Below are positions 10 through 11,458 of a stretch of DNA of 11,458 nucleotides, piece after piece (the stretch's first letter is position 1; every line of letters starts with the position of its first letter). Both the position numbers and the translations under genes were made by a program. The stretch lies in the NCBI GenBank assembly GCA_028693335.1, contig JAQUVR010000011.1:1-11458 (forward strand). The letters are read 5' to 3'. Under the pieces are notes generated by a model, which was not told the origin of the DNA, searched no databases, and was given only the letters and a program-made list of their open reading frames with translations. Source of the stretch: Candidatus Iainarchaeum sp. (GTDB taxonomy: Archaea; Iainarchaeota; Iainarchaeia; Iainarchaeales; CSSED10-239).

Positions 10-936
10 TTATATTAATCCAAGCAATATTAGAAGAATTGCTTCTCTTACATATACTCCGTTTTCTGCCTGTTTAAAATATAAATTATATTTAGAATCA
101 TCTACATTTTTATCAATTTCATAAACTCTTGGTAATGGATGCATTACAAATAGATTAGGATTATTTTCATTATCTAATAATTCTTTTGTAATTGTATATT
201 TTTTCTTAAGTTTTTCAATATCTATTGGTTCTGCAATTCTTTCTAGCTGTGTTCTTGTTACATATAGTATGTCTAGATCTTTTAAATTTCCAATTGGGGT
301 ATCAAGTATTTCATATTTTATTTTTTTTGAATCTAATATTTTTAGATATTCTTTTCCAATTGTAAATTCTGGAGATGAAATGAATTTTATTATTTTTGGA
401 TTATAAAGTGAGATTGCTTCAACTAATGAATGAACTGTTCTTCCATATTTTAGATCTCCAAAAAAGCCAATACTGATATCGTCTAATTTTCCAATTTTCT
501 GTTTTATTGTAAATAAATCTAACATTGTTTGTGTTGGGTGTTGATTAGTACCATCTCCTGCATTAATTATTGGTTTATCTGTTATTTCGCTTGCAAATCT
601 GGCAGCACCTTCAATTTTTGTTCTCATTATAATTAAATCACTATATCCTGAAACTATTTTTATTGTGTCACTAAAAGTTTCTCCTTTTTTTATTGCAGTT
701 GTTTGAATATCTTCAAAACCAATTGTATTTCCACCAAGTTTTTTTGTTGCAGTCTCAAAAGACATTTTTGTTCTAGTTGATGGTTCGAAAAAGAGTGTTG
801 CTATGATTTTTCCTTTTAAAAGATCTGTATATTTATCAGGGTTTTTGTAAACCTCTTGAGAAACAGATAAAATATAGTTGATCTCTTTAGTTGAAAAATC
901 ATGAATGGATATTATGTTCTTTATTTTATGGTCCAT
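10..936 (-). CDS. pyrB: aspartate carbamoyltransferase, catalytic chain
   Basis: Minus-strand ORF with the ATCase motifs FFEPSTRTK (carbamoyl-phosphate S-T-R-T site), NQHPTQ, GDLKYGRTVHS, RTQLER and HPLPR. HPLP fits ATCase rather than the HCLP of ornithine carbamoyltransferase. Start placed at ATG 934-936 (MDHKIKN...) rather than the track's TTG at 951, because GGAGG (945-949, minus strand) lies 8 nt upstream of that ATG and the TTG overlaps it. Stop is TAA at 10-12. The last 9 nt before the window edge read ACTTGGAGA on the minus strand, an SD-like GGAGA that hints at a closely following gene (pyrI would be typical) outside the window. Confidence 0.9.
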   Translation of the reverse strand: MDHKIKNIISIHDFSTKEINYILSVSQEVYKNPDKYTDLLKGKIIATLFFEPSTRTKMSFETATKKLGGNTIGFEDIQTTAIKKGETFSDTIKIVSGYSDLIIMRTKIEGAARFASEITDKPIINAGDGTNQHPTQTMLDLFTIKQKIGKLDDISIGFFGDLKYGRTVHSLVEAISLYNPKIIKFISSPEFTIGKEYLKILDSKKIKYEILDTPIGNLKDLDILYVTRTQLERIAEPIDIEKLKKKYTITKELLDNENNPNLFVMHPLPRVYEIDKNVDDSKYNLYFKQAENGVYVREAILLILLGLI

Positions 937-944
937 TCTATTTT

Positions 945-949
945 CCTCC
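945..949 (-). promoter_or_regulatory. Shine-Dalgarno-like GGAGG for pyrB
   Basis: CCTCC on the plus strand is GGAGG on the minus strand, 8 nt upstream of ATG 936. Confidence 0.6.
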
Positions 950-987
950 AAGAAAATTTCTGTTTATTTATTTAAATTATCAAAACA

Positions 988-996: not shown

Positions 997-1072
997 GTTT
1001 TTTGTATTATTATTATTAAATAGTAATGATTTTGTGTTAAAAAGTTAAAATTGCCTATTGGTGATAACAATT

Positions 1073-4000
1073 ATGAAAAAAATATTGATCTTGTTTTTTA
1101 TGTTATTAAATCTCTCTATAGTCTTTGGATTAAGTCCGAATTTTTTTAATAATAATAGTTATTATGATCAAGTAGTAGATCTTGGTGTGTCAGACACAAA
1201 TTTATCAGGTAATTTTTTAAGAATTAGTGTTTCTGATCAATCTCAAAATTATTTTTTAAATACCTATGATTTTTCTGAAGTTAATAGTGTTGAAGTTGTT
1301 TTTGATGTTTCTGTATCTTCTAATTTAATTGTTACTTATGAAACATTAGATCTAAATGAGTTAATACTAGAAACCTATGTTTTTCCTTTGAATCTAGAAA
1401 TAATAGATCTTGGAAATTTGTATTTGTGTGATTCTATTAATTGTTCTTTTGATGAAATTTCTAATAATTATTTTGATAATAATACAGGGGTTTATTTATT
1501 TGTTGATAATAATTTAGATGTTAATTATTCAGTAGATGTTTTTTTTAAAGAAAATTTAGAAAATTCTCTTTTATTTTCAGAAAAAGATTTATCTTTTCCA
1601 TATTTTGTTTCTGTTTCTGAATATGGGGAATATAAGTTGATATTAAATTATATTTTTGAAGATCAAATATTTAAAAAAGAAATTATTTTTTTTATAAATA
1701 ACATATTGCCAGTTTCAGAAGAATACTTAAATGAACCAAATCAAAACATTATCTTTTACGATTCAATTATTGAAGAATCAGAAGATCTAAATCAAAGCAA
1801 TGTTGTTGATAATAGCTATTCTTTGCAAAATAATGACTATGCGTCTAAAGATTCTAAAAACATAAGTTTTATTATTTTAATTTTAGCAATAATTGTTTTA
1901 ATGCTTTTTATTGTTTTTTCCAATAAAAGAAATAGACGAAAAGATAGAAAAATATCTGCTATTTTGTTTTTTTTATTTTTTTTAAGTTTATTTAATTTTG
2001 TTTATTCTGATCCTCAGATTACTATTAACCTTGAAAGAGAAAATAAAATTAATGAAATTTATAGATATTATAGAACACAAAACACCATTTCTGATGATCT
2101 ATTATTTATTTTTGAAATTAATAATGGTCAACCAGTAAATAGGATCATAGAAAATTACCAAATAATTCCATATGATACTGATGGCGTAAGAAGAACACCA
2201 ACAATTAATACCACTCTTGCTCATAGAACAGTAAATAATCAACCAATTTATTCTATTGAAAACAGATTAGACAGAGTATATTTTTTTAACACTGCAAAAA
2301 GAGGAACAATTAACAATAGAAATCAATTCTTTTCTTGTTTTAATGCTGCAGACACTTATTATAGATCTGTTGATGTTTTTGATAATGTTACAATAGCTAA
2401 TGAACAAGAAACAGTTAGAAGACTTTTTTTGCCAAGAACAGAATCTGAAGTTAAAAGAGGAATATCTACTAGAACAAATAACAACACAGAATTTTTAACA
2501 AATTGTTTTAATTTTTTAGTGCGCGAAAAAATAATTCTTCCATATGATATTTTATTATACACTAGAGTAGAACTTAGAAATATTCCAGAAAATAAAGACA
2601 CTTATCAATCAAATGAACAAATAATTTTTAATCCACCTTTTTTAAATACAAATAAACCAATTAATGTAAGAATTTCTTTTAAGAAAACACCGATTACAAT
2701 ATCTTCACGATATACTTTGCCTTTTGGTTGTGAAAATCAAGAATTGGATTATTGTTATCTTAATAGACAAGATATAGAATTAATAAAAAATCAAAGTGAT
2801 GGTGGAATTATTGCAACTCCAGAATATTTTCAAAGGAGAGCAAGATATTTTAATTTACTAAATCAATTTGATTTGGTAAAAAATTTTAGTGTAAAAAAAG
2901 TTGACGGAATAGATTTAAAAGAAGTTTTAGTTGCTGCTGCAATGAAAAGAGAAAATCTCTGTTTTTCTGAAGAGAATAAAGAATATAATGAAATAATTTT
3001 TGATGTTGCAAAAGCATATAACTTTACAGATGAACAAGCATTACAATTTTGGGCAATTGTTGCAGAAAAATCAAACTGTAATATTAATTATGATAGACCA
3101 AATGATGGGTTTTTAGGCCTTTCTCAAACTAGATTAGAAGATTATTATAAACAATATGTTGATTTAGATCCAAAAATGGCTCCACAACTAAAAGAAGAAG
3201 AAAATTTACAGTATTTAGTTTTGGGAGATTTTAGAGAAATTAACACAAAAAATATTGAAAAATATGGTAGAGATAATATAATTAGATTTGGTGGTTCTCC
3301 TGGAAAGATAAACACTATGTATTGGTATTATGAATTTCTTATTAAGGCAATTAAATCAAGTAGAGATAAGCACGGATCTTTAGTTTTATTTGCTGGTGCT
3401 GATTATTTAAAAGAAACGACAAATTTGGTTAATTTTTGTGATAATTATAATCGTGAAAATAATACTCAAAACAGTTTCTATAACTTAGACACTTTTATTT
3501 TAGATAATACAAAAAAAAATATGATTGGTGTGTTTGTTTTAGGAAATTTATTAGATCAAAAAAACATTTTAAAAACAGAAGAAATCTGTAAGAGTGTTGG
3601 TGAACCAGAATCTATAATTTTAGAACACCCTATACTTTATAATACTTTGACTGGAAATTATTGTGTAGATAATGGTTATGTTCCATCAGCAACATATCCA
3701 ATAAATAAAACAATTGCTGGTGTTACTTATAATGGGTCTGGTGCTTTACTTTACAAATGTCAAAACAACAGAATCTATAGCTGTATTCCTGGAACAACAA
3801 CAACTCAAGAAGTAGTTAGTCCCCCACAGGTTTTAAGAACAGAAATTTGTTCTGCTCAATCTAGTGTTTCTGATTTTAGGGTTAGAATTTCTAAGGAGTT
3901 TAAGATTTTAATTAATTATCTTGCAATAAAACAAAAATATCAAGCAAATAAAAACTATTTTGTGGAAAATGGTTTTTTGGATGGTCAGACAAATGACCAA

Positions 4001-4894
4001 GGCATAACTAATAAATATCAAGAATATTCTAGATTAAAACATAATTATCTTGAATTGAGAAAAGAAAATTATTTAAGAATTTTAGATACTCAAGATATTT
4101 CTTTATTAAAAAGAATTAATTCTAATTATTATTTTGCAGACACTTTAAAAAACACAAGATCATTATCATCAGCAACATCTGGGCGTTGTGCACAATTTGT
4201 AAGAGAATTTGGTGCAAATATTTTTACTTTAGATCGTTATCCTACGCCTGGTGCTTCTGCAGCCTGGACATATGACACAACACCAAGTGTAAGGCAAGGG
4301 TATAATTTAATTTGGGAATCTCCAACCGTTTGTTATAGTAAACCAGGAAACACAAGATTGTCAAGAAATACTTGTGTTGAAACGCCATCTGTTCAAAGTG
4401 AAACATTAGATTTAGATTTATTACCTGATGGTGCAATATTAGGGCTTTATGTTTGTAAACAACAACACACAAATAGTAGAAATGTAACTACTTATAATTT
4501 AGAATATACTCATGTTGGAACCTATATAGGCAAAGACCAACTAGGTAATCATTTGTTGATTCATATGGGCAATTCTAGAGCAATAGAAAAAATTAGTGAT
4601 TATACTTCATTAAGATGTGGTTCTGGATTTTATCGCCAAATATTAAGAGTTTATGTTCCAAGATCAACAGGGATAACAAGTATGGAACAATTAAGAGAAT
4701 TAAAACAGAGAAATTTATTACAACCAATTACTTGGGTAGAAAATATAGATAGATTAATTGATACCACAAACGGAGAAAATTTTGAAGCGTTTTCATACCC
4801 TGAATTAGATTCTCAAGATGATATTTATACTGAAGAAACTGAATCAGAATCTTTGGAACAAGAGAATAATGATGATTTAATTATAACAGAATAA
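1073..4894 (+). CDS. giant secreted/membrane-anchored protein: fusion of module A (surface-anchored domain) and module B (putative dual cell-wall hydrolase); hypothetical
   Basis: Uninterrupted 1278-codon ORF in the track (TTG 1058). I prefer ATG 1073 (MKKILILFFMLLNLSIVFG/LSPN, a classic signal peptide) because GGTGA at 1060-1064 lies 8 nt upstream. Stop TAA at 4892-4894 is followed directly by T6 (4895-4900). Residues 1-317 (track numbering) are paralogous to the 7697..8671 product and residues 318-1278 to the 8661..>11458 product; the shared blocks are listed in the findings. Confidence 0.88.
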   Translation: MKKILILFFMLLNLSIVFGLSPNFFNNNSYYDQVVDLGVSDTNLSGNFLRISVSDQSQNYFLNTYDFSEVNSVEVVFDVSVSSNLIVTYETLDLNELILETYVFPLNLEIIDLGNLYLCDSINCSFDEISNNYFDNNTGVYLFVDNNLDVNYSVDVFFKENLENSLLFSEKDLSFPYFVSVSEYGEYKLILNYIFEDQIFKKEIIFFINNILPVSEEYLNEPNQNIIFYDSIIEESEDLNQSNVVDNSYSLQNNDYASKDSKNISFIILILAIIVLMLFIVFSNKRNRRKDRKISAILFFLFFLSLFNFVYSDPQITINLERENKINEIYRYYRTQNTISDDLLFIFEINNGQPVNRIIENYQIIPYDTDGVRRTPTINTTLAHRTVNNQPIYSIENRLDRVYFFNTAKRGTINNRNQFFSCFNAADTYYRSVDVFDNVTIANEQETVRRLFLPRTESEVKRGISTRTNNNTEFLTNCFNFLVREKIILPYDILLYTRVELRNIPENKDTYQSNEQIIFNPPFLNTNKPINVRISFKKTPITISSRYTLPFGCENQELDYCYLNRQDIELIKNQSDGGIIATPEYFQRRARYFNLLNQFDLVKNFSVKKVDGIDLKEVLVAAAMKRENLCFSEENKEYNEIIFDVAKAYNFTDEQALQFWAIVAEKSNCNINYDRPNDGFLGLSQTRLEDYYKQYVDLDPKMAPQLKEEENLQYLVLGDFREINTKNIEKYGRDNIIRFGGSPGKINTMYWYYEFLIKAIKSSRDKHGSLVLFAGADYLKETTNLVNFCDNYNRENNTQNSFYNLDTFILDNTKKNMIGVFVLGNLLDQKNILKTEEICKSVGEPESIILEHPILYNTLTGNYCVDNGYVPSATYPINKTIAGVTYNGSGALLYKCQNNRIYSCIPGTTTTQEVVSPPQVLRTEICSAQSSVSDFRVRISKEFKILINYLAIKQKYQANKNYFVENGFLDGQTNDQGITNKYQEYSRLKHNYLELRKENYLRILDTQDISLLKRINSNYYFADTLKNTRSLSSATSGRCAQFVREFGANIFTLDRYPTPGASAAWTYDTTPSVRQGYNLIWESPTVCYSKPGNTRLSRNTCVETPSVQSETLDLDLLPDGAILGLYVCKQQHTNSRNVTTYNLEYTHVGTYIGKDQLGNHLLIHMGNSRAIEKISDYTSLRCGSGFYRQILRVYVPRSTGITSMEQLRELKQRNLLQPITWVENIDRLIDTTNGENFEAFSYPELDSQDDIYTEETESESLEQENNDDLIITE
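1862..2008 (+). other. fusion joint: TM anchor of module A, basic loop, then the former signal peptide of module B
   Basis: ISFIILILAIIVLMLFIVFS (1862-1921), NKRNRRKDRK (1922-1951), ISAILFFLFFLSLFNFVYS (1952-2008), followed by DPQ. This mirrors the split pair, where A ends WFFVVGFVVFILVIWFLSNL-KKPKQNRRIIRKEYEK and B starts MKNNKLFFLFLLIFIFTQEVYA-IPQ. Confidence 0.7.
2993..3127 (+). other. lytic transglycosylase (SLT)/lysozyme-like motif region, fused copy
   Basis: IIFDVAKAYNFTDEQALQFWAIVAEKSNCNINYDRPNDGFLGLSQ resembles the family-1 SLT pattern (A-x-x-Y-x-x-D-x-x-L-L-x-A-I-x-x-x-E-S-x-x-N-P ... G-x-x-G-L-M-Q). Candidate catalytic Glu670 is at 3065-3067. It deviates from the canon in reading E-K-S instead of E-S. 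Recognised by eye only. Confidence 0.5.
3662..3850 (+). other. 63-aa cysteine-rich cassette, fused copy (Cys869-Cys931)
   Basis: CVDNGYVPSATYPINKTIAGVTYNGSGALLYKCQNNRIYSCIPGTTTTQEVVSPPQVLRTEIC aligns with compensating single-residue gaps to the split-copy cassette at 9879-10067. Shared positions: C, D, GY, S, YP, G, G, YKC, R, C-x-P, V, L, EIC. Confidence 0.7.
4172..4666 (+). other. NlpC/P60-CHAP-like papain-fold peptidase/amidase motif set, fused copy
   Basis: SGRCAQFV (Cys1044, 4187-4189) resembles the nucleophile motif (DCSGFV in NlpC/P60, QC-x-x-fV in CHAP). LLPDGAILGLY ... EYTHVGTYIGKDQLGNHLLIHMG resembles L-x-pGDlvff ... HVGIYIG-x-g-x-x-IHa, with His1152 at 4511-4513 and His1169 at 4562-4564. 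The Cys-to-His spacing of 108 residues is longer than typical and contains a Cys-bearing insert. Confidence 0.5.
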
Positions 4895-4914
4895 TTTTTT
4901 AATAATGATCATTT

Positions 4915-5067
4915 ATGACTAAAGGAACAAAAATGTTAATCTCTGGAATAACTAAAAAAAATATTAAGCCTGCAAAAAAAATAGACAAAAAAACTTTTAA
5001 TGATATAAAAGCACTTTTAGAATCTGCCAGAGAATCTTTTAATAAAAATCAAAATAAAAGAAATTGA
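4915..5067 (+). CDS. possible small lysine-rich protein (50 aa, or 44 aa from ATG 4933); hypothetical
   Basis: Not in the ORF track (too short). Translation is MTKGTKMLISGITKKNIKPAKKIDKKTFNDIKALLESARESFNKNQNKRN, with stop TGA at 5065-5067. The in-frame ATG at 4933 has AAGGA (4922-4926) 6 nt upstream. It fills most of the gap between convergent genes. In A-rich DNA an open Lys-rich frame of this length can arise by chance. Confidence 0.25.
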   Translation: MTKGTKMLISGITKKNIKPAKKIDKKTFNDIKALLESARESFNKNQNKRN

Positions 5068-5088
5068 GAAAAAATTAATTTTTCTCAG
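5065..5088. terminator. perfect 24-bp palindrome between convergent genes (candidate bidirectional terminator)
   Basis: tgagaaaaaatt|aattttttctca is exactly self-complementary. It contains the TGA of the small plus-strand ORF (5065-5067) and the TAA of RuBisCO on the minus strand (5075-5077). It presents a T6 run to transcription from either direction. The stem is AT-rich and therefore weak. Confidence 0.35.
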
Positions 5089-6538
5089 TATTAAGTGCTC
5101 TTTCTATTTCAGAACATTTTTTCTTACTAAAAAAGTCTATTGCTTCTTTTAGTTCAACATGGTCTTTTGCATACTCTTCTATAGAAATACCTTTTTTATA
5201 TGCCTCACATGCTTGAACTAAAGCTCTGGCACCCTCTTGTGTTCCTTTTGGATGAGCATGACAACCAGCGCCCATAGTGGTTATAAAGTCTACTGAGCCC
5301 ATAACATCTATAAATGGTTTTAGTAATGTAGGATTTAGTCCACCAGAAATTATAGGTGCACATTTTTTTACTCCTCTCCAAGAATCGTCTTTTAAGATAA
5401 CGTGGCCAACAGAATCTTCTTGAACTAATTTTACAGAATCTTTGTCATCTTCTGGTATCTTTGACCAAGATTGATCAAAGAAATGACCAGTTGCAGAAAA
5501 ATCTAAAATTCCATCAGCAGCAGTGACATCTTCTTTAGGGGTTCCGTCCATTTTTCCAACACCAGCAGTTCCAGTGTGTATTCCTGATGCTCCTGCAAGT
5601 CTTGCAAATTTAGATAGAACTAAAACAGAAAAACCAAATGGATTTTCTGGTCTTGTAAATGCTCCGTGTGCTGCTCTATGGAAATGTATAAATACATTTG
5701 GATATCTTCTTCTTAATGTTTGAACAGCCATCCATCCAGCAGTAATTCCATCAATTAAGAAAGCATATGATCCTTCTTCAAATCCAGCATTTATGATCAT
5801 TTCACATCTATTGATCATGGTGTCAAAATCTGATGCTGAAACATTAAATGAATGAACTTTTTTTTGTCCTGTTTCTTTTACTGCTTTATCCATAGCTTCT
5901 TTTACATGTTTAACCATTTTTTCATAAGGGCAGAAATCTTGATCTGCTTGTGGTTCATCATTCTTAACAAAATCTCCACCACCAACCCAAAAATCATAGG
6001 CAACTTCTGCATATTCTGCACTTGTTAGTCCCATCTTTGGTTTTACTATTGTACCTAATATTGGTCTATCATAAACACCAAGATATTTTCTCATATCATC
6101 AAGAGTGTAACTAGGTCCATCAAATTGTTCTAACATTGCTGGAGAGAACCAAACATCTAATAGTTTTAGGGCTGACACTTCTTTCATTCCTAAAACATTT
6201 CCAACAACATAGGTTAAAATATTTTGAACATTTCCAATCCTGTCAAACAATCTCCATGGAAAAGCTATCCAAACAAGATTTTTTTCTAAATCTAGTTTGT
6301 ATACTAAAGCATTCATTTCTCTTGAAAATGCAGTTTCAGTTTTTACCTTAAAATTAGTTCCTGTTGATGACTCTGCTGCAACTTCTGCTGCTGCTTGTAA
6401 GATGTTTAATGATCCTCCTGGTAAAAGATGGAATATACATAACATATATTCTCCATTTTTAACATTTGGAATCTCAAAATTAACATAAGCTTTTTGTTTA
6501 TCATTTAATGATTCATATAATTCTTTTTCTGTTAACAT
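5075..6538 (-). CDS. rbcL: ribulose-1,5-bisphosphate carboxylase/oxygenase large subunit, long form II/III-like type
   Basis: 487-aa ORF with the full RuBisCO active-site set (spinach equivalents in brackets). AAESSTGT has Glu56 (E60) and YVVGNV has Asn114 (N123). TIVKPKMG has K166/K168 (K175/K177). VKNDE has K192/D194/E195 (carbamylated K201, D203, E204), with the K192 codon at 5963-5965. HFHRAAH has H287/R288/H291 (H294/R295/H298). GIHTGT has H321 (H327) and GKM has K329 (K334). ISGGL has S398-G399-G400 (S379-G381), and TMGAG follows. GGAGGAG (6544-6550, minus strand) lies 5 nt upstream of ATG 6538. Confidence 0.93.
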   Translation of the reverse strand: MLTEKELYESLNDKQKAYVNFEIPNVKNGEYMLCIFHLLPGGSLNILQAAAEVAAESSTGTNFKVKTETAFSREMNALVYKLDLEKNLVWIAFPWRLFDRIGNVQNILTYVVGNVLGMKEVSALKLLDVWFSPAMLEQFDGPSYTLDDMRKYLGVYDRPILGTIVKPKMGLTSAEYAEVAYDFWVGGGDFVKNDEPQADQDFCPYEKMVKHVKEAMDKAVKETGQKKVHSFNVSASDFDTMINRCEMIINAGFEEGSYAFLIDGITAGWMAVQTLRRRYPNVFIHFHRAAHGAFTRPENPFGFSVLVLSKFARLAGASGIHTGTAGVGKMDGTPKEDVTAADGILDFSATGHFFDQSWSKIPEDDKDSVKLVQEDSVGHVILKDDSWRGVKKCAPIISGGLNPTLLKPFIDVMGSVDFITTMGAGCHAHPKGTQEGARALVQACEAYKKGISIEEYAKDHVELKEAIDFFSKKKCSEIERALNTEKN

Positions 6539-6543
6539 TTTTT

Positions 6544-6550
6544 CTCCTCC
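6544..6550 (-). promoter_or_regulatory. Shine-Dalgarno GGAGGAG for rbcL
   Basis: ctcctcc on the plus strand, 5 nt from the start codon. Confidence 0.65.
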
Positions 6551-6581
6551 ATAAAATAATATAGATAAGAAGTAAGAAGTC

Positions 6582-6590
6582 TTTATATAT
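6582..6590 (-). promoter_or_regulatory. TATA-like element (ATATATAAA on minus strand) upstream of rbcL
   Basis: tttatatat at 6582-6590, about 44 nt upstream of ATG 6538. This would leave a leader of roughly 20 nt carrying the SD. Same 9-mer as upstream of pyrB. Weak support given the composition. Confidence 0.25.
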
Positions 6591-6745
6591 TTTTGTTTTT
6601 AATTAAAAAAAACAGATCTGATTTTTAAACATTTCCATCTTATAGTTTTATAGTAAAATAAATTTACTAATTTTATTGCTGTTAAAGGTATTTTTTAACC
6701 GCAAACAACAGATTTTTGCCTTTTTTTAAGAAATCTGTGAATGTA

Positions 6746-6755
6746 AGGAGAGGAG
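6746..6755 (+). promoter_or_regulatory. Shine-Dalgarno-like AGGAGAGGAG
   Basis: Purine-rich double GGAG, 11 nt upstream of ATG 6767. Confidence 0.5.
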
Positions 6756-6766
6756 TGTTTTTAGGT

Positions 6767-7093
6767 ATGAACAAAAAAACAATATTGGTAATTATAGGTA
6801 TAACTATAATTTTAAGTACTTTTGTTTTATTTGCAAAAGTTAATGCAAAAGAAAATGGATCTTTTGCTATATCACAAAGTGATTATTTTTCAAAAAACGG
6901 TTTTACAATTAAACCCATTGAGCCAAGTCAGCCAACTTTTTTAGATATGGTTAGATGTACTTGTAATGGAGAGGCTTGTGGTAGTTCTTTTGAAAGTCAA
7001 CCAAACGTACAGGCTGGAAATTTGATTGTTTATTGTGCACAATTATGTTCTTGTAGATCTCATGTTGGCTTTACTTATGAAACTGAAGAATAG
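6767..7093 (+). CDS. small secreted cysteine-rich protein (108 aa); hypothetical
   Basis: The track ORF starts at TTG 6716. I prefer ATG 6767 (MNKKTILVIIGITIILSTFVLFAKVNA/KENG, a signal peptide) because of the upstream AGGAGAGGAG. GTG 6755 is an alternative. The mature part has six Cys clustered in the C-terminal half (RCTCNGEAC ... YCAQLCSC). Stop is TAG at 7091-7093. Confidence 0.7.
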   Translation: MNKKTILVIIGITIILSTFVLFAKVNAKENGSFAISQSDYFSKNGFTIKPIEPSQPTFLDMVRCTCNGEACGSSFESQPNVQAGNLIVYCAQLCSCRSHVGFTYETEE

Positions 7094-7108
7094 ATTTTTT
7101 TATTCTTC
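7085..7108 (+). terminator. hairpin plus T-runs after the small secreted protein gene
   Basis: gaagaata (7085-7092) pairs perfectly with tattcttc (7101-7108). The stem can extend by G-U and A-T pairs to leave a tttt loop. It overlaps the stop codon and is followed by ttgacttttt (T5 at 7114-7118). Confidence 0.4.
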
Positions 7109-7119
7109 TTGACTTTTTC

Positions 7120-7134
7120 TTTATAAATATTTTG
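7120..7134 (+). promoter_or_regulatory. TATA-box-like promoter motif tttataaatattttg (copy 1)
   Basis: An exact 15-mer that also occurs at 7666-7680. It starts 31 nt upstream of ATG 7151. The intervening 16 nt are pure A/T with no SD, which fits a leaderless or near-leaderless transcript. Confidence 0.45.
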
Positions 7135-7150
7135 ATTATTTATTTTATAT

Positions 7151-7651
7151 ATGAATGATCAACTAAAAATAAAATTTGTGTTTGTTGGTAATAGACCAAT
7201 TAAGAAACCAGAATTATTGAATAATGTTTTGTGTGTCTATCTAAATAGTGGCAGATCTTTTTTATTAGCCAGAGAGAATAGACCAGTTTTTGAATATTTA
7301 TTAAATACAAAAAATAAAAAAGATCAATTACAAATTGTGGAATTACTAAAAAACAACTCTTTTTATGAATTTGTTGGATCTGTTCCAAAAATAAAAGAAT
7401 ATTGTAAATTGTTTGATTCGTTTAATGGTTTTGAAACAATAGATCATTTAGAAAAAGTTCTAAAAAATTTTGAAAAATGGACAAATGGAAATACTTTACA
7501 AAGACAAAAAGCAATTGATGGTTTTTCTAAGGAAATTAAACAATCTATATTAAAAGAATATTTTGCAAATTTAAATGTTAGACAACCAAACCCAGTAAAA
7601 CCAACACAAAAAAAAAGAACAAATGTAACCACAAAGTCAAAAGTTAAATGA
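7151..7651 (+). CDS. hypothetical cytosolic protein (166 aa) with Lys/Thr-rich basic tail
   Basis: ATG-initiated ORF with no signal peptide or TM segment. The C-terminus is QPNPVKPTQKKRTNVTTKSKVK. No family recognised. Stop is TGA at 7649-7651. Confidence 0.7.
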   Translation: MNDQLKIKFVFVGNRPIKKPELLNNVLCVYLNSGRSFLLARENRPVFEYLLNTKNKKDQLQIVELLKNNSFYEFVGSVPKIKEYCKLFDSFNGFETIDHLEKVLKNFEKWTNGNTLQRQKAIDGFSKEIKQSILKEYFANLNVRQPNPVKPTQKKRTNVTTKSKVK

Positions 7652-7665
7652 TTGGCTAAGATAGT

Positions 7666-7680
7666 TTATAAATATTTTGT
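7666..7680 (+). promoter_or_regulatory. TATA-box-like promoter motif tttataaatattttg (copy 2)
   Basis: Identical 15-mer to 7120-7134. It starts 31 nt upstream of GTG 7697, the same spacing as copy 1 to ATG 7151. No SD lies in between. Confidence 0.45.
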
Positions 7681-7696
7681 TTAGTTATAATTATTA

Positions 7697-8671
7697 GTGA
7701 TAGACATGAATAATTTACACAAACTAATTTTTTTAATAAGCTTTTTTTTATTGTTATCTAACATCTATGCATATAATTTAGAAAATGGAAAAACATATTA
7801 TTATGGCGCCATATTAGATATTGGGATATCAGATCTTAATTCTGTTTCTAATATAGATGTAACACAAATAAATTATGTTAATATTAGTGTAAGTAGTGAT
7901 TATGAAACATATATTAGTTATGATTATAATTTAGAAGAAATATCAGAAATGCCAATCCAATTTGATAAAGATATTGCATCAAAATTAAGAATTAGTTATA
8001 TCTTTTTTGATAATGTTGATAACATAATTAAAGAAGAAGAAATAAATATTAATCTTGTTGAAAATTTAGACACTAGTAATTTTTATTTATGTAGTGATAA
8101 AGATTGTCAAAAAGATCTGTTACCAAAAAATTATGATTTTTGGATTGATGATGCTATTTTTGTTTCTGCTGATAAGATTGATTATGAGAAATATAATTAT
8201 AATATTTTTATACAAATAGATCAAGAAAATAATAATACTTTGTTATTATCAGAAGAAAACATTGTTTTTCCATATGAAATTTTTAATGATGTTATTGTTG
8301 GACATAATTATTATAAAATAATAATTGAAATGATTAGTAAAGATAATGAGATTTATTTACAAGAAATCTATTTTAGATTATCTAATTTAAAAGAAATAGA
8401 AAATAGGCAACTGGTTTCAGAAATAACAACTAACAATGAGACAACAACAAACATCTTACAGGAAAATAATAATTTAGAAACTGCTTCTCAAAAAGAGATA
8501 GATACTCAAAAAGCAGAAGAAATTGAATTAAATAAACAAGACACAAAATTAGATAATAAATGGTTTTTTGTGGTTGGATTTGTGGTTTTTATTTTAGTAA
8601 TTTGGTTTTTAAGTAATTTAAAAAAACCTAAACAAAACAGACGAATAATTAGGAAAGAATATGAAAAATAA
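7697..8671 (+). CDS. module A paralog: signal peptide, extracellular domain, polar stalk, C-terminal TM anchor; hypothetical
   Basis: The start is ambiguous between GTG 7697 (favoured by promoter-motif spacing) and ATG 7706 (MNNLHKLIFLISFFLLLSNIYA/YNL). It shares blocks with the N-terminal 317 aa of the fused protein: YYYGAILDIGISDLN / YYDQVVDLGVSDTN, NFYLCSDKDC / NLYLCDSINC, LLLSEENIVFPY / LLFSEKDLSFPY, and YKIIIE / YKLILN. The TM segment WFFVVGFVVFILVIWFLSNL (8561-8620) is followed by the basic tail KKPKQNRRIIRKEYEK. Confidence 0.85.
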   Translation: MIDMNNLHKLIFLISFFLLLSNIYAYNLENGKTYYYGAILDIGISDLNSVSNIDVTQINYVNISVSSDYETYISYDYNLEEISEMPIQFDKDIASKLRISYIFFDNVDNIIKEEEININLVENLDTSNFYLCSDKDCQKDLLPKNYDFWIDDAIFVSADKIDYEKYNYNIFIQIDQENNNTLLLSEENIVFPYEIFNDVIVGHNYYKIIIEMISKDNEIYLQEIYFRLSNLKEIENRQLVSEITTNNETTTNILQENNNLETASQKEIDTQKAEEIELNKQDTKLDNKWFFVVGFVVFILVIWFLSNLKKPKQNRRIIRKEYEK

Positions 8672-11458
8672 TAAACTATTTTTTTTATTTTTATTAATCT
8701 TTATATTTACACAAGAAGTATATGCAATTCCACAAATACCAACAGACTTAGTAAATTATAATACAGTTTATGATATTTTTAATTTTTATTATCCAAAATT
8801 TGAAACCCCATTACAAATTCCAATAAATTATACTGTTTTAGATGATGGGACATTAGCAACAAGGAATATAGGCTATAAAGACATAATTATTGGTAATTTT
8901 ATGCAAACGCCAATAGTAATTAATTCAAAATCAGAAGATCTAAATGTTACTGTAAGTTTAGAAAAAGTTTATTTTTTATCTAACAGATCTAATTTTTCAG
9001 TAGAAAATAATTGTTCTCGTGCAATTTTAAGATACTATACTGAATTAAATAATCTTTTTTTATCACCATACAATCCAAGGAACAAAGATGTTGTAATTGA
9101 TAGAATTTTTGTTCCAAGAACAAAAGAAAGAATTATTTCTTTTTTATCATCAAATGGAGTTAATAATCCTGAAGATTGTCTATTTAATCTAGAAACAAAT
9201 AGAAATCTTTATTCTTTTCCAGTTTTATTTAAATTAGAATCAAAACTAATTGGCACAAAAGAAAGTTTAGGCAAAAACTTTTCTTTTCAAGTTAAGTTTA
9301 ATCCTGATTTTTTAAGTAATATAAAACCAATTCAATATAATGTATCTTTTAGAAAAGAACCAATAAGAGTGAGTTCAACATATAGTTTTCCACGAGGTTG
9401 TGAAAATAATCCTATTGTTGGTGCCTGTTATATTACTAATCAAGATATTATAAATTTTAATGAAACTAGTATTACTTCTCCAGAAAGTGTAGCAATAAAT
9501 AATGAGATTTATAGTTTATTAAATAATTTTACTGCAGTTTCTTCATTTAAGAACAATATGTTTGAAAATATTAATACTCAAAACTTGTTAGTAGATTTAT
9601 CCTTAAAAAGAGAACAATTTTGTTTTAGAGAAGAAAATGAGGATTATACAAAAGTTATTTTTGATGTTGCAAAAGCATATGATCTGTCATTAGAAGAAGC
9701 TTTTCAATTGTGGGCATTAATTTCTGAAAGATCTAATTGTAATTATAATTTGGATCCAACCTTATATGGTTTTGCTCAAGTTGATCTAAGGGATAGAGCT
9801 GATGGTAAATTAATAGATATTGAAGAAATTACAAATACCCAAAATAATCAAACCCCAGTAGATTCTAGTTGCTCTATGTGTGGTGATGGTTATTTTTTAT
9901 CTTCTAATTACCCAACAAGATCAGCAGCTGTTGGTGGCCAAAATCTTTTAAAAGGACAAGTTTGTTATAAATGTGTCTCAGACACAAGAGTTGAGAGATG
10001 TAATCCAAATAATGGAATTGTTGGTGGTACTGTTAATATGCCACTTGCTTTAAAAAATGAAATTTGTCCAAATTTTGGTAATTTACCAGCAAATCAAACA
10101 AATATTTCTGATCAAATATCAAATACCATTCCATTACAATTAGAAGAGGAAGAGCAGTTTCAATATCTGGCTATTGGTGATTTTAATAATATAAATAATT
10201 ATATTAGAGATAATTTATATAATGGAGATACTTATGCCTATTATAAATATGGAATAGATAATAAAATTACAAATTCTGAAACCTATTTTAATTTTTTAAT
10301 TAATGCCATAAAATATAATTCTGATGAATATGGGTCAACTATATTATTTGCATCAGACTATATTAAAGCAATGAATTTTTTAGTAAAAAATAGTAGAGAA
10401 AAATCAGATAATGCTTTTGTTTTTGAAGACAATATTTTAAGCACGCCATATAGTTTAAATTCTGTTTATGTCTTATCTAATATTTTAAATTCAGAAAATA
10501 CTGAAAAAATATATGAAATTGGAAGAAATCCAAATATATTTGAATCAACAACTTTTTTTGTAAAGGATGGTAATAATATAAAAACAACTAGAGATATAAG
10601 AGTTTTAATTAATTATCTTGCAATTAAGAGAAAATATTTAAGAGATCCAGAATATTTTTTAAGATTTAATTTAAGAAGATTTAATGCTAATACTCCTGAT
10701 TTGACTTTAAAGTTAGAAAATTATAATAGATTAAATCACAAATACTGGGACGCAAAAAAAAATATTTATTTACAAACACTTGAAACTAATAATCAAAAAT
10801 TAATGTTAAAAAAAAATATTGAATATTATAGTTTTGATAGATTATTATCAATACCAGCGAGACCAAATTATCCAGTGTCATATATTTTAGATTTTGGTAA
10901 AGAAGTTTATTTAGATGGTCAAGATAATTACATTGGTTTTGGGTTGCTTGCTTGGAATTTTGATACTAAAAGAGAAGCAATAGATAATTACAATTTAATT
11001 TGGGAAGCTTCAAATATTTGTAATAATAAAATTGTTTGTGATCAATCTGTTCCAACAACCAAAGATTGTTGTTATGAGAATAGATCTTTACAAGATGGGC
11101 GAACTTACTATCCTTATTTAGATGTACTTATTGATGGTGCGATACTTGGAATCTATAATCCAACAAGTAAATATAATGATGAAAATAGAGAATACACTCA
11201 TTTGGCTATGTATATTGGAAAAACATCAGCGGGTATTCCTTTGATTATTGAAAGTACTGTTAATGGTCAAAAGATTTCTATTTTAAATAGAGAAATAAGG
11301 GATAGAGTAAAAAGAATATATGTTCCAAAATCAACAAATATTCAAAATATTAGATCAATTATTCAAAATCCATCAAGATATCCATCAACTTATGTAAAAT
11401 TAACAAATGTTCAATTACAAGAGATTCAAAGACAAGAAAGAGAAAGAATAGGTGATAC
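8661..11458 (+). CDS. module B paralog (3' end outside window): secreted protein with SLT-like motif, Cys-rich cassette and degenerate NlpC/P60-like region; hypothetical
   Basis: Absent from the ORF track because no stop occurs before the window edge. I translated it by hand: at least 932 codons from ATG 8661 (MKNNKLFFLFLLIFIFTQEVYA/IPQIPTDL...). The ATG overlaps the upstream gene by 11 nt (ATGAAAAATAA), and AGGA at 8651-8654 lies 6 nt upstream. It is collinear with residues 318-1278 of the fused protein. Shared blocks include RIFVPRTKE / RLFLPRTES, FNPDFLSNIKPI / FNPPFLNTNKPI, PRGCEN / PFGCEN, IFDVAKAY, SNCN, QYLAIGDF / QYLVLGDF, LINYLAIK, YNLIWE, DGAILG, EYTH and RIYVPKST / RVYVPRST. By comparison with the fused copy, only a few tens of codons are missing. 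Confidence 0.88.
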   Translation, partial: MKNNKLFFLFLLIFIFTQEVYAIPQIPTDLVNYNTVYDIFNFYYPKFETPLQIPINYTVLDDGTLATRNIGYKDIIIGNFMQTPIVINSKSEDLNVTVSLEKVYFLSNRSNFSVENNCSRAILRYYTELNNLFLSPYNPRNKDVVIDRIFVPRTKERIISFLSSNGVNNPEDCLFNLETNRNLYSFPVLFKLESKLIGTKESLGKNFSFQVKFNPDFLSNIKPIQYNVSFRKEPIRVSSTYSFPRGCENNPIVGACYITNQDIINFNETSITSPESVAINNEIYSLLNNFTAVSSFKNNMFENINTQNLLVDLSLKREQFCFREENEDYTKVIFDVAKAYDLSLEEAFQLWALISERSNCNYNLDPTLYGFAQVDLRDRADGKLIDIEEITNTQNNQTPVDSSCSMCGDGYFLSSNYPTRSAAVGGQNLLKGQVCYKCVSDTRVERCNPNNGIVGGTVNMPLALKNEICPNFGNLPANQTNISDQISNTIPLQLEEEEQFQYLAIGDFNNINNYIRDNLYNGDTYAYYKYGIDNKITNSETYFNFLINAIKYNSDEYGSTILFASDYIKAMNFLVKNSREKSDNAFVFEDNILSTPYSLNSVYVLSNILNSENTEKIYEIGRNPNIFESTTFFVKDGNNIKTTRDIRVLINYLAIKRKYLRDPEYFLRFNLRRFNANTPDLTLKLENYNRLNHKYWDAKKNIYLQTLETNNQKLMLKKNIEYYSFDRLLSIPARPNYPVSYILDFGKEVYLDGQDNYIGFGLLAWNFDTKREAIDNYNLIWEASNICNNKIVCDQSVPTTKDCCYENRSLQDGRTYYPYLDVLIDGAILGIYNPTSKYNDENREYTHLAMYIGKTSAGIPLIIESTVNGQKISILNREIRDRVKRIYVPKSTNIQNIRSIIQNPSRYPSTYVKLTNVQLQEIQRQERERIGD
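9654..9779 (+). other. SLT/lysozyme-like motif region, split copy
   Basis: VIFDVAKAYDLSLEEAFQLWALISERSNCNYNLDPTLYGFAQ. The candidate Glu356 (9726-9728) is conserved with Glu670 of the fused copy. GFAQ replaces GLSQ. Confidence 0.45.
9879..10067 (+). other. 63-aa cysteine-rich cassette, split copy (Cys407-Cys469)
   Basis: CGDGYFLSSNYPTRSAAVGGQNLLKGQVCYKCVSDTRVERCNPNNGIVGGTVNMPLALKNEIC is homologous to 3662-3850. Here it lies upstream of the QYL-x-x-GDF block rather than downstream of it. Confidence 0.7.
10854..11333 (+). other. NlpC/P60-like region lacking the nucleophile Cys, split copy
   Basis: PVSYILDFG aligns without gaps to CAQFVREFG, putting Pro738 (10872-10874) opposite Cys1044. LIDGAILGIY ... 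EYTHLAMYIGKTSAGIPLIIES keeps His847 (11199-11201). Glu864 (11250-11252) replaces the second His at the identical 17-residue spacing. Confidence 0.45.

Follow-up and report, generated by a model that had tools for sequence, protein, structure and literature searches.

A cysteine-rich cassette at two different insertion sites in paralogous, putatively secreted archaeal proteins

The DNA analysed here, referred to as the window, comprises 11,458 nucleotides of contig JAQUVR010000011.1 from Candidatus Iainarchaeum sp. (G+C content ~25%) and encodes two large paralogous proteins, one of a fused type and one, denoted as B, of a split type. A first-pass annotation, made from the sequence alone, had pointed to a 63-residue cysteine-rich cassette in both proteins and claimed that the flanking backbone is collinear while the cassette is not. 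The locus therefore raises the question of whether the two cassettes are the same domain and, if so, how one domain came to occupy two places in one scaffold. The genes and cassettes concerned are as follows.

1058-4894, plus strand: fused-type paralog, 1278 residues (open reading frame list; BLASTP against A and B; orthologs P0001-P0006)
3662-3850, plus strand: cassette core in the fused protein, a four-cysteine form (C2, C4, C5 and C6 kept; C1 and C3 lost)
8661-11458, plus strand: split B paralog, 932 of its 1148 residues inside the window, cut by the window end (full length: P0010, L008)
9870-10070, plus strand: cassette domain in B with the full set of six cysteines (C404, C407, C435, C438, C447 and C469) and the conserved Pro470

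The coordinates given in the annotation were exact, as Cys869-Cys931 of the fused protein correspond to 3662-3850 and Cys407-Cys469 of B to 9879-10067. The cysteine motif that it described reads correctly in both copies, and MAFFT puts one single-residue gap in each. The span of 63 residues stands for the core from C2 to C6, but in B the domain begins three residues earlier, at Cys404 (9870). When the two proteins were compared by BLASTP, a check that the annotation had proposed, three collinear matches were obtained (fused 404-695 / B 100-378, E 1e-39; fused 681-846 / B 470-623, E 9e-16; fused 942-1228 / B 640-913, E 1e-30), and the cassettes gave a significant off-diagonal match between these collinear flanks (fused 869-939 / B 407-484, 30% identity, 37 bits, E 8e-6). 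The cassette thus precedes the middle block in B (N, cassette, middle, C) and follows it in the fused protein (N, middle, cassette, C).

As the pairwise identity is ~30% over 63 residues, the resemblance could be suspected to come from chance or from the composition of cysteine- and glycine-rich low-complexity sequence. To guard against circularity, we built two separate hidden Markov models (HMMs), the first restricted to fused-type cassettes and the second to those of the B type. The fused-only HMM found its best, near full-length match in all eight B-type cassettes, the reciprocal search behaved likewise, and cassette-less relatives stayed at E > 0.3. In a comparison of the two profiles by hhalign, the probability was 97.2% and the E-value 4.6e-11. 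Furthermore, ten of the 13 database matches outside the family, described below, are full-length cassettes. Chance or compositional resemblance is refuted by the specific, full-length reciprocal matches, the profile comparison and the database-wide profile search, and its probability is negligible. The fused and B segments are homologous.

To place the cassettes in the scaffold, we collected 21 relatives from two homolog searches and three further genes on genomic loci; a word-indexed homolog search with the cassette alignment A3 found nothing. A MAFFT alignment of 23 members, spanning IFDVAKAY to LINYLAIK, contains two clean indels, denoted as the early and the late site. The early site, with GNLI[EN]I[ED] on its N-terminal side and xLPLQLxEEEQFQYL on its C-terminal side, is filled in eight B types (window B, P0010, P0011, P0014, P0007-9 and P0015), and the late site lies between ...FFVK and xIKTTKExRVLINYLAIK and is filled in all seven fused-type proteins. 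At least ten B types carry the cassette at neither site (P0012, P0013, P0016-P0021, the genomic L004 gene and two genes of L005), and no protein with two cassettes occurs among the 23 proteins and three extra genomic loci. At both sites, the host sequence on either side of the cassette is collinear with insert-free homologs. The two positions are clearly non-equivalent once the 23 homologs are aligned, in agreement with the first-pass annotation. The short unrelated linker that had been claimed for each empty site is essentially absent; each empty site is joined directly, just as in homologs without a cassette. The inserts, the empty sites and a neighbouring string are located as follows.

3158-3190, plus strand: empty early site in the fused protein (VDLD/PKMAPQL), collinear with the cassette-less IEID/SKLPLQL (MAFFT)
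3575-3613, plus strand: TEEICKSVGEPES, the EIC-x3-G-x-P string before the fused cassette, conserved backbone (MAFFT)
3647-3877, plus strand: whole late-site insert in the fused protein, LTGNY, cassette and SAQSSVSDF, between ILYNT and RVRIS
9828-10127, plus strand: whole early-site insert in B, consisting of the N-linker EITNTQNNQTPVDSS, the cassette and the C-linker PNFGNLPANQTNISDQISNT
10548-10589, plus strand: empty late site in B (TTFFVK-DG-NNIKTT), a predicted beta-hairpin turn just before the LINYLAIK helix

A circular permutation or block swap of one domain was rejected, since at least ten members without the cassette keep the order N-middle-C. The string TEEICKSVGEPES, which the annotation had likened to the post-cassette string of B and left uninterpreted, was considered as a relic of a second cassette and rejected as well. 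It aligns with EKIYE-IGRNPNIF of B (10503-10541) and its equivalents in all B types, and is conserved backbone in all members. The cysteine of this string, Cys844 (TEEIC, 3575-3613), and Cys794 in a six-residue insert (NFCDNY, 3428-3448) are found in all seven fused types and in no B type, a pattern that suggests a further disulfide in fused types alone. At the DNA level, the borders of the inserts show short, imperfect direct repeats only. The best, 19 nucleotides at 79% (9821-9839 / 10109-10127), encodes EEITNT and DQISNT and brackets the inserted segment of B, and P0007 and P0009 have a comparable IDK...IDK pair at the protein level. The repeat may be an insertion footprint or a chance match in AT-rich DNA.

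We then asked whether the cassette occurs in other protein contexts. The profile A1, built from 12 cassettes, was searched against 1.84 billion representative proteins at E <= 1e-3 and returned 17 matches: four known family members, ten new full-length cassettes and three repeat proteins. The last three (P0029, P0030 and P0034) are spurious, as only about 20 profile positions were matched. The ten new proteins (P0022-P0028 and P0031-P0033; E 2.5e-11 to 8e-4) carry no Pfam domain and have two other architectures. In the x-type (P0022, P0023, P0032 and P0033), the cassette comes after an N-terminal domain of another kind and before further regions; in some members these include a lysozyme-motif module at the C-terminus, with 52% identity to the C-terminal end of the B-type P0007. 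The y-type proteins (P0024-28 and P0031) have 870-1425 residues with a large unrelated C-terminal region, and in P0027 and P0028 the cassette directly follows a signal peptide and a glycine-rich linker. Based on BLASTP, the cassette is the only region common to the y-type and the fused/B family. Because the y-types share nothing else with this family, the cassette appears to be autonomous and shuffled among architectures, as the first-pass annotation had suspected.

The x-type proteins show two further features of this kind. The lysozyme-motif module of the backbone is itself shuffled: residues 599-707 of the fused protein (2852-3178) match the C-terminal module of x-types at E 2e-9, and the module is placed at 659-764 in P0022 and at 954-1228 in P0007, whose 275 C-terminal residues are those that share 52% identity with the C-terminus of P0022. 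After the cassette, P0022 (~335-395) and P0023 (~345-405) also have a second segment with a cassette-like four-cysteine pattern (C..EY..YP..KC..SC..IC). This segment may be a degenerate tandem copy; it has no significant match to the cassette HMM.

To see whether the cassette is likely to fold on its own, we implemented AlphaFold2 on the 68-residue segment of B with the 20-sequence alignment A3. The prediction, another check proposed in the annotation, is a confident, compact, beta-rich fold of five short strands and a C-terminal helix, with a mean predicted local distance difference test (pLDDT) score of 94.9 and a predicted template modelling score of 0.81. This self-contained model, the other architectures and the separation of the module in a model of the B backbone are all consistent with an autonomous unit. 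That second model, of B residues 283-668 (386 residues, pLDDT 76), has a helical scaffold from which the cassette stands apart as a beta module, with linkers of pLDDT < 50 on both sides, and it puts the empty late site at a beta-hairpin turn that directly precedes the LINYLAIK helix. Both insertion sites would therefore be loops, and the flanks ILYNT and RVRIS of the fused insert are predicted from the B model to be the strands of a beta-hairpin. Foldseek comparisons of the cassette model found nothing significant in the PDB (best E 0.23, TM-score 0.32) or in BFVD (best E 0.12), and no significant relative was found among PDB sequences, Pfam or NCBIfam. As such, the cassette appears to be a secreted mini-domain of ~66-70 residues from an undescribed family, modelled here without a known structural relative.

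The cysteine pattern gives a further view of this predicted fold. The general form has six cysteines (C-x2,3-C ... C-x2-C ... C ... C), and every cassette has six, four or two of them. C1 and C3 were lost together once, in the fused types, and C4 and C6 were lost together twice independently, in P0006 (a fused type, also without C1 and C3) and in P0015 (a B type). The pairing C1-C3, C2-C5 and C4-C6 is predicted because it is the only one that leaves no unpaired cysteine in any protein, and the cassette is thus most likely stabilised by up to three such disulfides. The pairwise co-loss supports the disulfide-type character that the annotation had assigned to the module. Since a single predicted strand holds both C3 and C4, two residues apart, the N- and C-terminal ends would both be tied to that strand, with the termini adjacent. 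This predicted adjacency would likely be the reason why the module tolerates insertion into a loop or at a hairpin tip.

An alternative is that the cassette is a zinc-ribbon-like knuckle in which C1-C4 are ligands and only C5 and C6 form a disulfide. The B types have the spacing C-x2-C...C-x2-C, two knuckles ~27 residues apart with beta hairpins as in the rubredoxin-like knuckle of the adenylate kinase lid (PF05191), and the sole Pfam near-matches, all insignificant, are zinc-knuckle families (ADK_lid, E 0.28; Zn_ribbon_recom, E 1; each in one of 20 members). No zinc-ribbon model thus reached significance, these two single-cassette matches being the best. However, the four-ligand set is not conserved: two of the four putative ligands are kept in the fused types and three of four in P0015, and the x- and y-types have C-x3-C. 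A C5-C6 disulfide leaves the two joint losses of C4 and C6 unexplained. Unlike in zinc ribbons, there are two further conserved cysteines, the losses occur in pairs that cut across the knuckles, and the context is secreted. The even number of cysteines in all copies and the signal peptides on the proteins also speak against zinc binding, which we regard as improbable.

How the homologous cassettes reached two sites depends on the history of the family, for which a neighbour-joining tree was built from 752 backbone columns. The fused clade, with the cassette always at the late site, is separated from the B clade with 100% support. Within the B clade, the basal group P0018-21 has no cassette, and three further groups without it (P0016/17, P0013 with L005B1, and P0012 with L005B2) are scattered among the early-site carriers. 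Presence and absence even alternate between close relatives (P0011 vs P0012, P0014 vs P0013), and this, together with the two different sites in the two paralog clades, bears out the description of the module as swappable. As P0012 and P0013 retain the linker residues (EQVTSK/QTTTISNT) found on either side of the cassette in P0011, to which they are closely related, the cassette was probably deleted in these proteins and not gained in P0011. P0012 and P0013 also have an identical C-terminal part and different N-terminal domains of ~280 residues, which points to recombination or swapping of the N-terminal domain and therefore to a backbone tree blurred by recombination.

The cassettes do not look recently acquired. 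The G+C content at third codon positions (GC3) of both cassettes equals the average of their genes, so the insertion or move is old and shows no sign of recent foreign origin. Among orthologs, the cassette is conserved at least as well as the scaffold (fused vs P0004, cassette 65% and backbone 58%; B vs P0011, cassette 63% and backbone 56%), and it therefore seems to be maintained by selection.

Comparing the cassettes with those of the other architectures, the mean identity of the B type is 39% to the x-type (closest P0022/23, 50-54%) and 35% to the y-type, and that of the fused type is 31% to the y-type (closest P0024, about 42-43%) and 27% to the B type, with 29-30% for the pair in the window. 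The BLASTP scores follow the same order, with 72 bits between B and P0022, 47 bits between the fused protein and P0024, and 37 bits between the fused protein and B. Among subgroup HMMs, the y-HMM gave every fused cassette a higher score than the B-HMM did, and each B cassette had its lowest score with the fused HMM. Furthermore, a YNGSGA[LI] block and a one-residue indel are common to the fused type and four y-types, and VGGQxLxKGQVCYKC and the post-cassette PN[FIV]G to the B types and x-types. These similarities, HMM scores and block patterns favour two independent insertions, drawn from cassette lineages that were distinct by then, as somewhat more probable than a move inside the gene. A neighbour-joining tree of the cassettes does not separate the two, since the bipartition of fused and B cassettes appears in 27% of 500 bootstraps.

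A relocation would mean that the ancestor of both paralogs had one cassette which moved across the middle block in one lineage, for example through a tandem duplication of cassette and middle block with two subsequent deletions, or through excision and re-insertion, and that the x- and y-types later borrowed cassettes from the fused/B family. The divergence between the paralog cassettes (27-30% identity) is indeed near that of the backbones (30-35%), GC3 is fully ameliorated, and the 27% grouping of fused and B cassettes fits as well. Nevertheless, the basal B clade is cassette-less and every empty site is a clean junction without a relic, the y-types P0025/26 are closer to B and x than to the fused type, which is unfit for a y-type derived from the fused lineage, and no intermediate with a duplicated block occurs among ~26 family members. 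We consider relocation unlikely. Differential loss, by which both sites were filled in the ancestor and a different cassette disappeared from each paralog, finds some support in the repeated cassette loss of the B clade. It is nonetheless very unlikely, because the 23 proteins and three extra loci include no double carrier and the cassette HMM shows no second match or relic at the empty sites.

The remaining features of the host genes and of their surroundings in the window are listed here.

10-951, minus strand: aspartate carbamoyltransferase
1862-2008, plus strand: transmembrane hairpin of the fused protein, residues 269-317
5075-6538, minus strand: form II/III RuBisCO, between the two paralogs (NF010002, 633 bits)
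7697-8671, plus strand: split A protein, 324 residues, homologous to the N-terminal part of the fused protein (open reading frame list, BLASTP)

The fused protein consists, in order, of a signal peptide, an A-like domain, the transmembrane hairpin and a B-like region with the late-site cassette. Based on BLASTP and on reading of the sequence, it is A and B joined via a two-helix membrane hairpin, in which a transmembrane segment (269-288), a basic loop (NKRNRRKDRK) and a second transmembrane segment (299-317) form the joint. In the split pair, the end of A and the start of B overlap by 11 nucleotides. The transmembrane pair would correspond to the C-terminal anchor of A and the signal peptide of B, as expected from a gene fusion or fission. 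Operons of A and B, in some cases with a further B', are present in L004, L005 and L010. From the signal peptides and the transmembrane hairpin, which were read directly from the family sequences, we infer that the host proteins are extracellular.

The neighbourhood of the fused gene and RuBisCO is conserved in L001/L003 and L008, the latter being a near-identical contig that shows B at its full length of 1148 residues. Two small open reading frames lie between RuBisCO and A. One of them (6716-7093, 125 residues) is hydrophobic at its N-terminus and rich in cysteine over its C-terminal half (CTCNGEACGSS...YCAQLCSCRSH), and no family match was found for it.

To see what kind of protein carries the cassette, we searched the backbone for known enzymatic domains. 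An E-[KR]-S...G-[FL]-[AS]-Q motif is present by reading, resembling that of soluble lytic transglycosylases (SLT). The backbone has no Pfam or NCBIfam match to an SLT profile, and the family profile finds no PDB sequence. In a Foldseek search of the 386-residue scaffold model against the PDB, lysozyme-like proteins were matched insignificantly (pesticin, E 1.7; endolysin AbLys1, E 2.7). Since neither profile nor Foldseek gave a significant PDB match, the SLT-like label stays at the level of a motif.

A cysteine (GRCAQFVREFG, 4181-4213) and a histidine (EYTHVGTYIG, 4502-4531) kept in the fused and the cassette-less short B types look like a papain- or NlpC/P60-type pair; this region has no Pfam match inside the window. 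B of the window lost that cysteine (ARPNYPVSYILDFG, 10857-10898). Beyond the window end, the full-length B protein has an additional C-terminal NlpC/P60 domain (PF00877), detected at residues 967-1100 of the 98% identical P0010 with 29.3 bits against a cut-off of 23, which may compensate for the lost cysteine. Relatives carry NlpC/P60 domains and a lysozyme-type motif, and murein-like lytic transglycosylases have been described in DPANN genomes as candidate tools for host interaction (PMC10936187).

Taken all together, we consider it likely that the cassette is an autonomous, loop-inserted disulfide mini-domain that probably serves in ligand or surface targeting. The host family would be surface proteins of uncultured, DPANN-like archaea that resemble cell-wall hydrolases. 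The cassette and its linkers would be plugged into one of two permissive loops flanking the helical middle block, namely a long loop after the E-[KR]-S...G-[FL]-[AS]-Q motif (early site, used in B types) or the beta-hairpin tip before the LINYLAIK helix (late site, used in fused types), and would have been deleted again several times. The two copies in the window would come from different cassette subgroups, that of B with the x-type and that of the fused protein with the y-type. By analogy with modular enzymes, a ligand- or surface-binding (targeting) module is the most likely role, and the cassette has conserved aromatic positions (G-[YF], Y-P and Y-K-C).

Several points weigh against this interpretation. 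The backbone inside the window has no significant Pfam, PDB-sequence or Foldseek match that would identify it as a hydrolase, and the binding role of the cassette is deduced by analogy. The predicted disulfide pairing and the closeness of the termini are both derived from covariation, the AlphaFold2 alignments were shallow (20 and 15 sequences), and the CxxC...CxxC spacing of the B types also fits a zinc knuckle. Lastly, the fused-type cassettes lie on a long branch and the cassette tree leaves the groupings unsupported, so that, given the 27% support for fused and B, the similarity to x- and y-types could be a rate effect.

Among known systems, the closest in organisation are the modular bacterial cell-wall hydrolases with LysM, SH3b, carbohydrate-binding (CBM) or peptidoglycan-binding modules. 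They likewise combine a small autonomous module and low-complexity linkers with lysozyme-like and NlpC/P60-type modules in varied order and number, are secreted, and have modules present or absent in close relatives. In contrast, the cassette matches no known binding module, lies inside the backbone (in a loop or at a hairpin tip) instead of being appended at an end, and its hosts are archaeal. The chitin-binding CBM14 (peritrophin-A) and hevein-like CBM18 domains resemble it in having ~65-70 residues, six cysteines, a beta-rich fold, conserved aromatics and an extracellular location, but the cysteine spacing differs; for 20 cassettes no Pfam match to them was found at E <= 10, and Foldseek against the PDB gave nothing below E 0.2. 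The murein-like lytic transglycosylases of DPANN archaea are large secreted proteins with an E-S...G-L-x-Q-like motif that were read as acting on the host cell wall (PMC10936187). Here, the backbone matches neither SLT models nor SLT structures, so membership is putative, and the cassette is not described in that literature (PMC10936187). Domain shuffling and insertion are well known, and the new element is the cassette domain itself, which is undescribed.

These results provide a natural case of a scaffold that accepts one domain at either of two insertion points and can thereby inform domain-insertion engineering, and the cassette is a small, concrete target for expression, for determining its structure and for ligand screens. 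DPANN archaea are believed to live in attachment to other cells, and to our knowledge the proteins that mediate this contact are almost entirely unannotated. We offer, as a speculation of low probability, that the cassette is a previously unseen fold for host recognition or adhesion in DPANN episymbionts, that swapping or shifting it would retarget lytic enzymes to different envelopes, and that its design of two disulfide staples would be a generally applicable solution for domains inserted into loops. What the locus contributes to the biology of these organisms is a compact, confidently modelled, database-orphan domain that appears to be shuffled among the largest secreted proteins of DPANN archaea.

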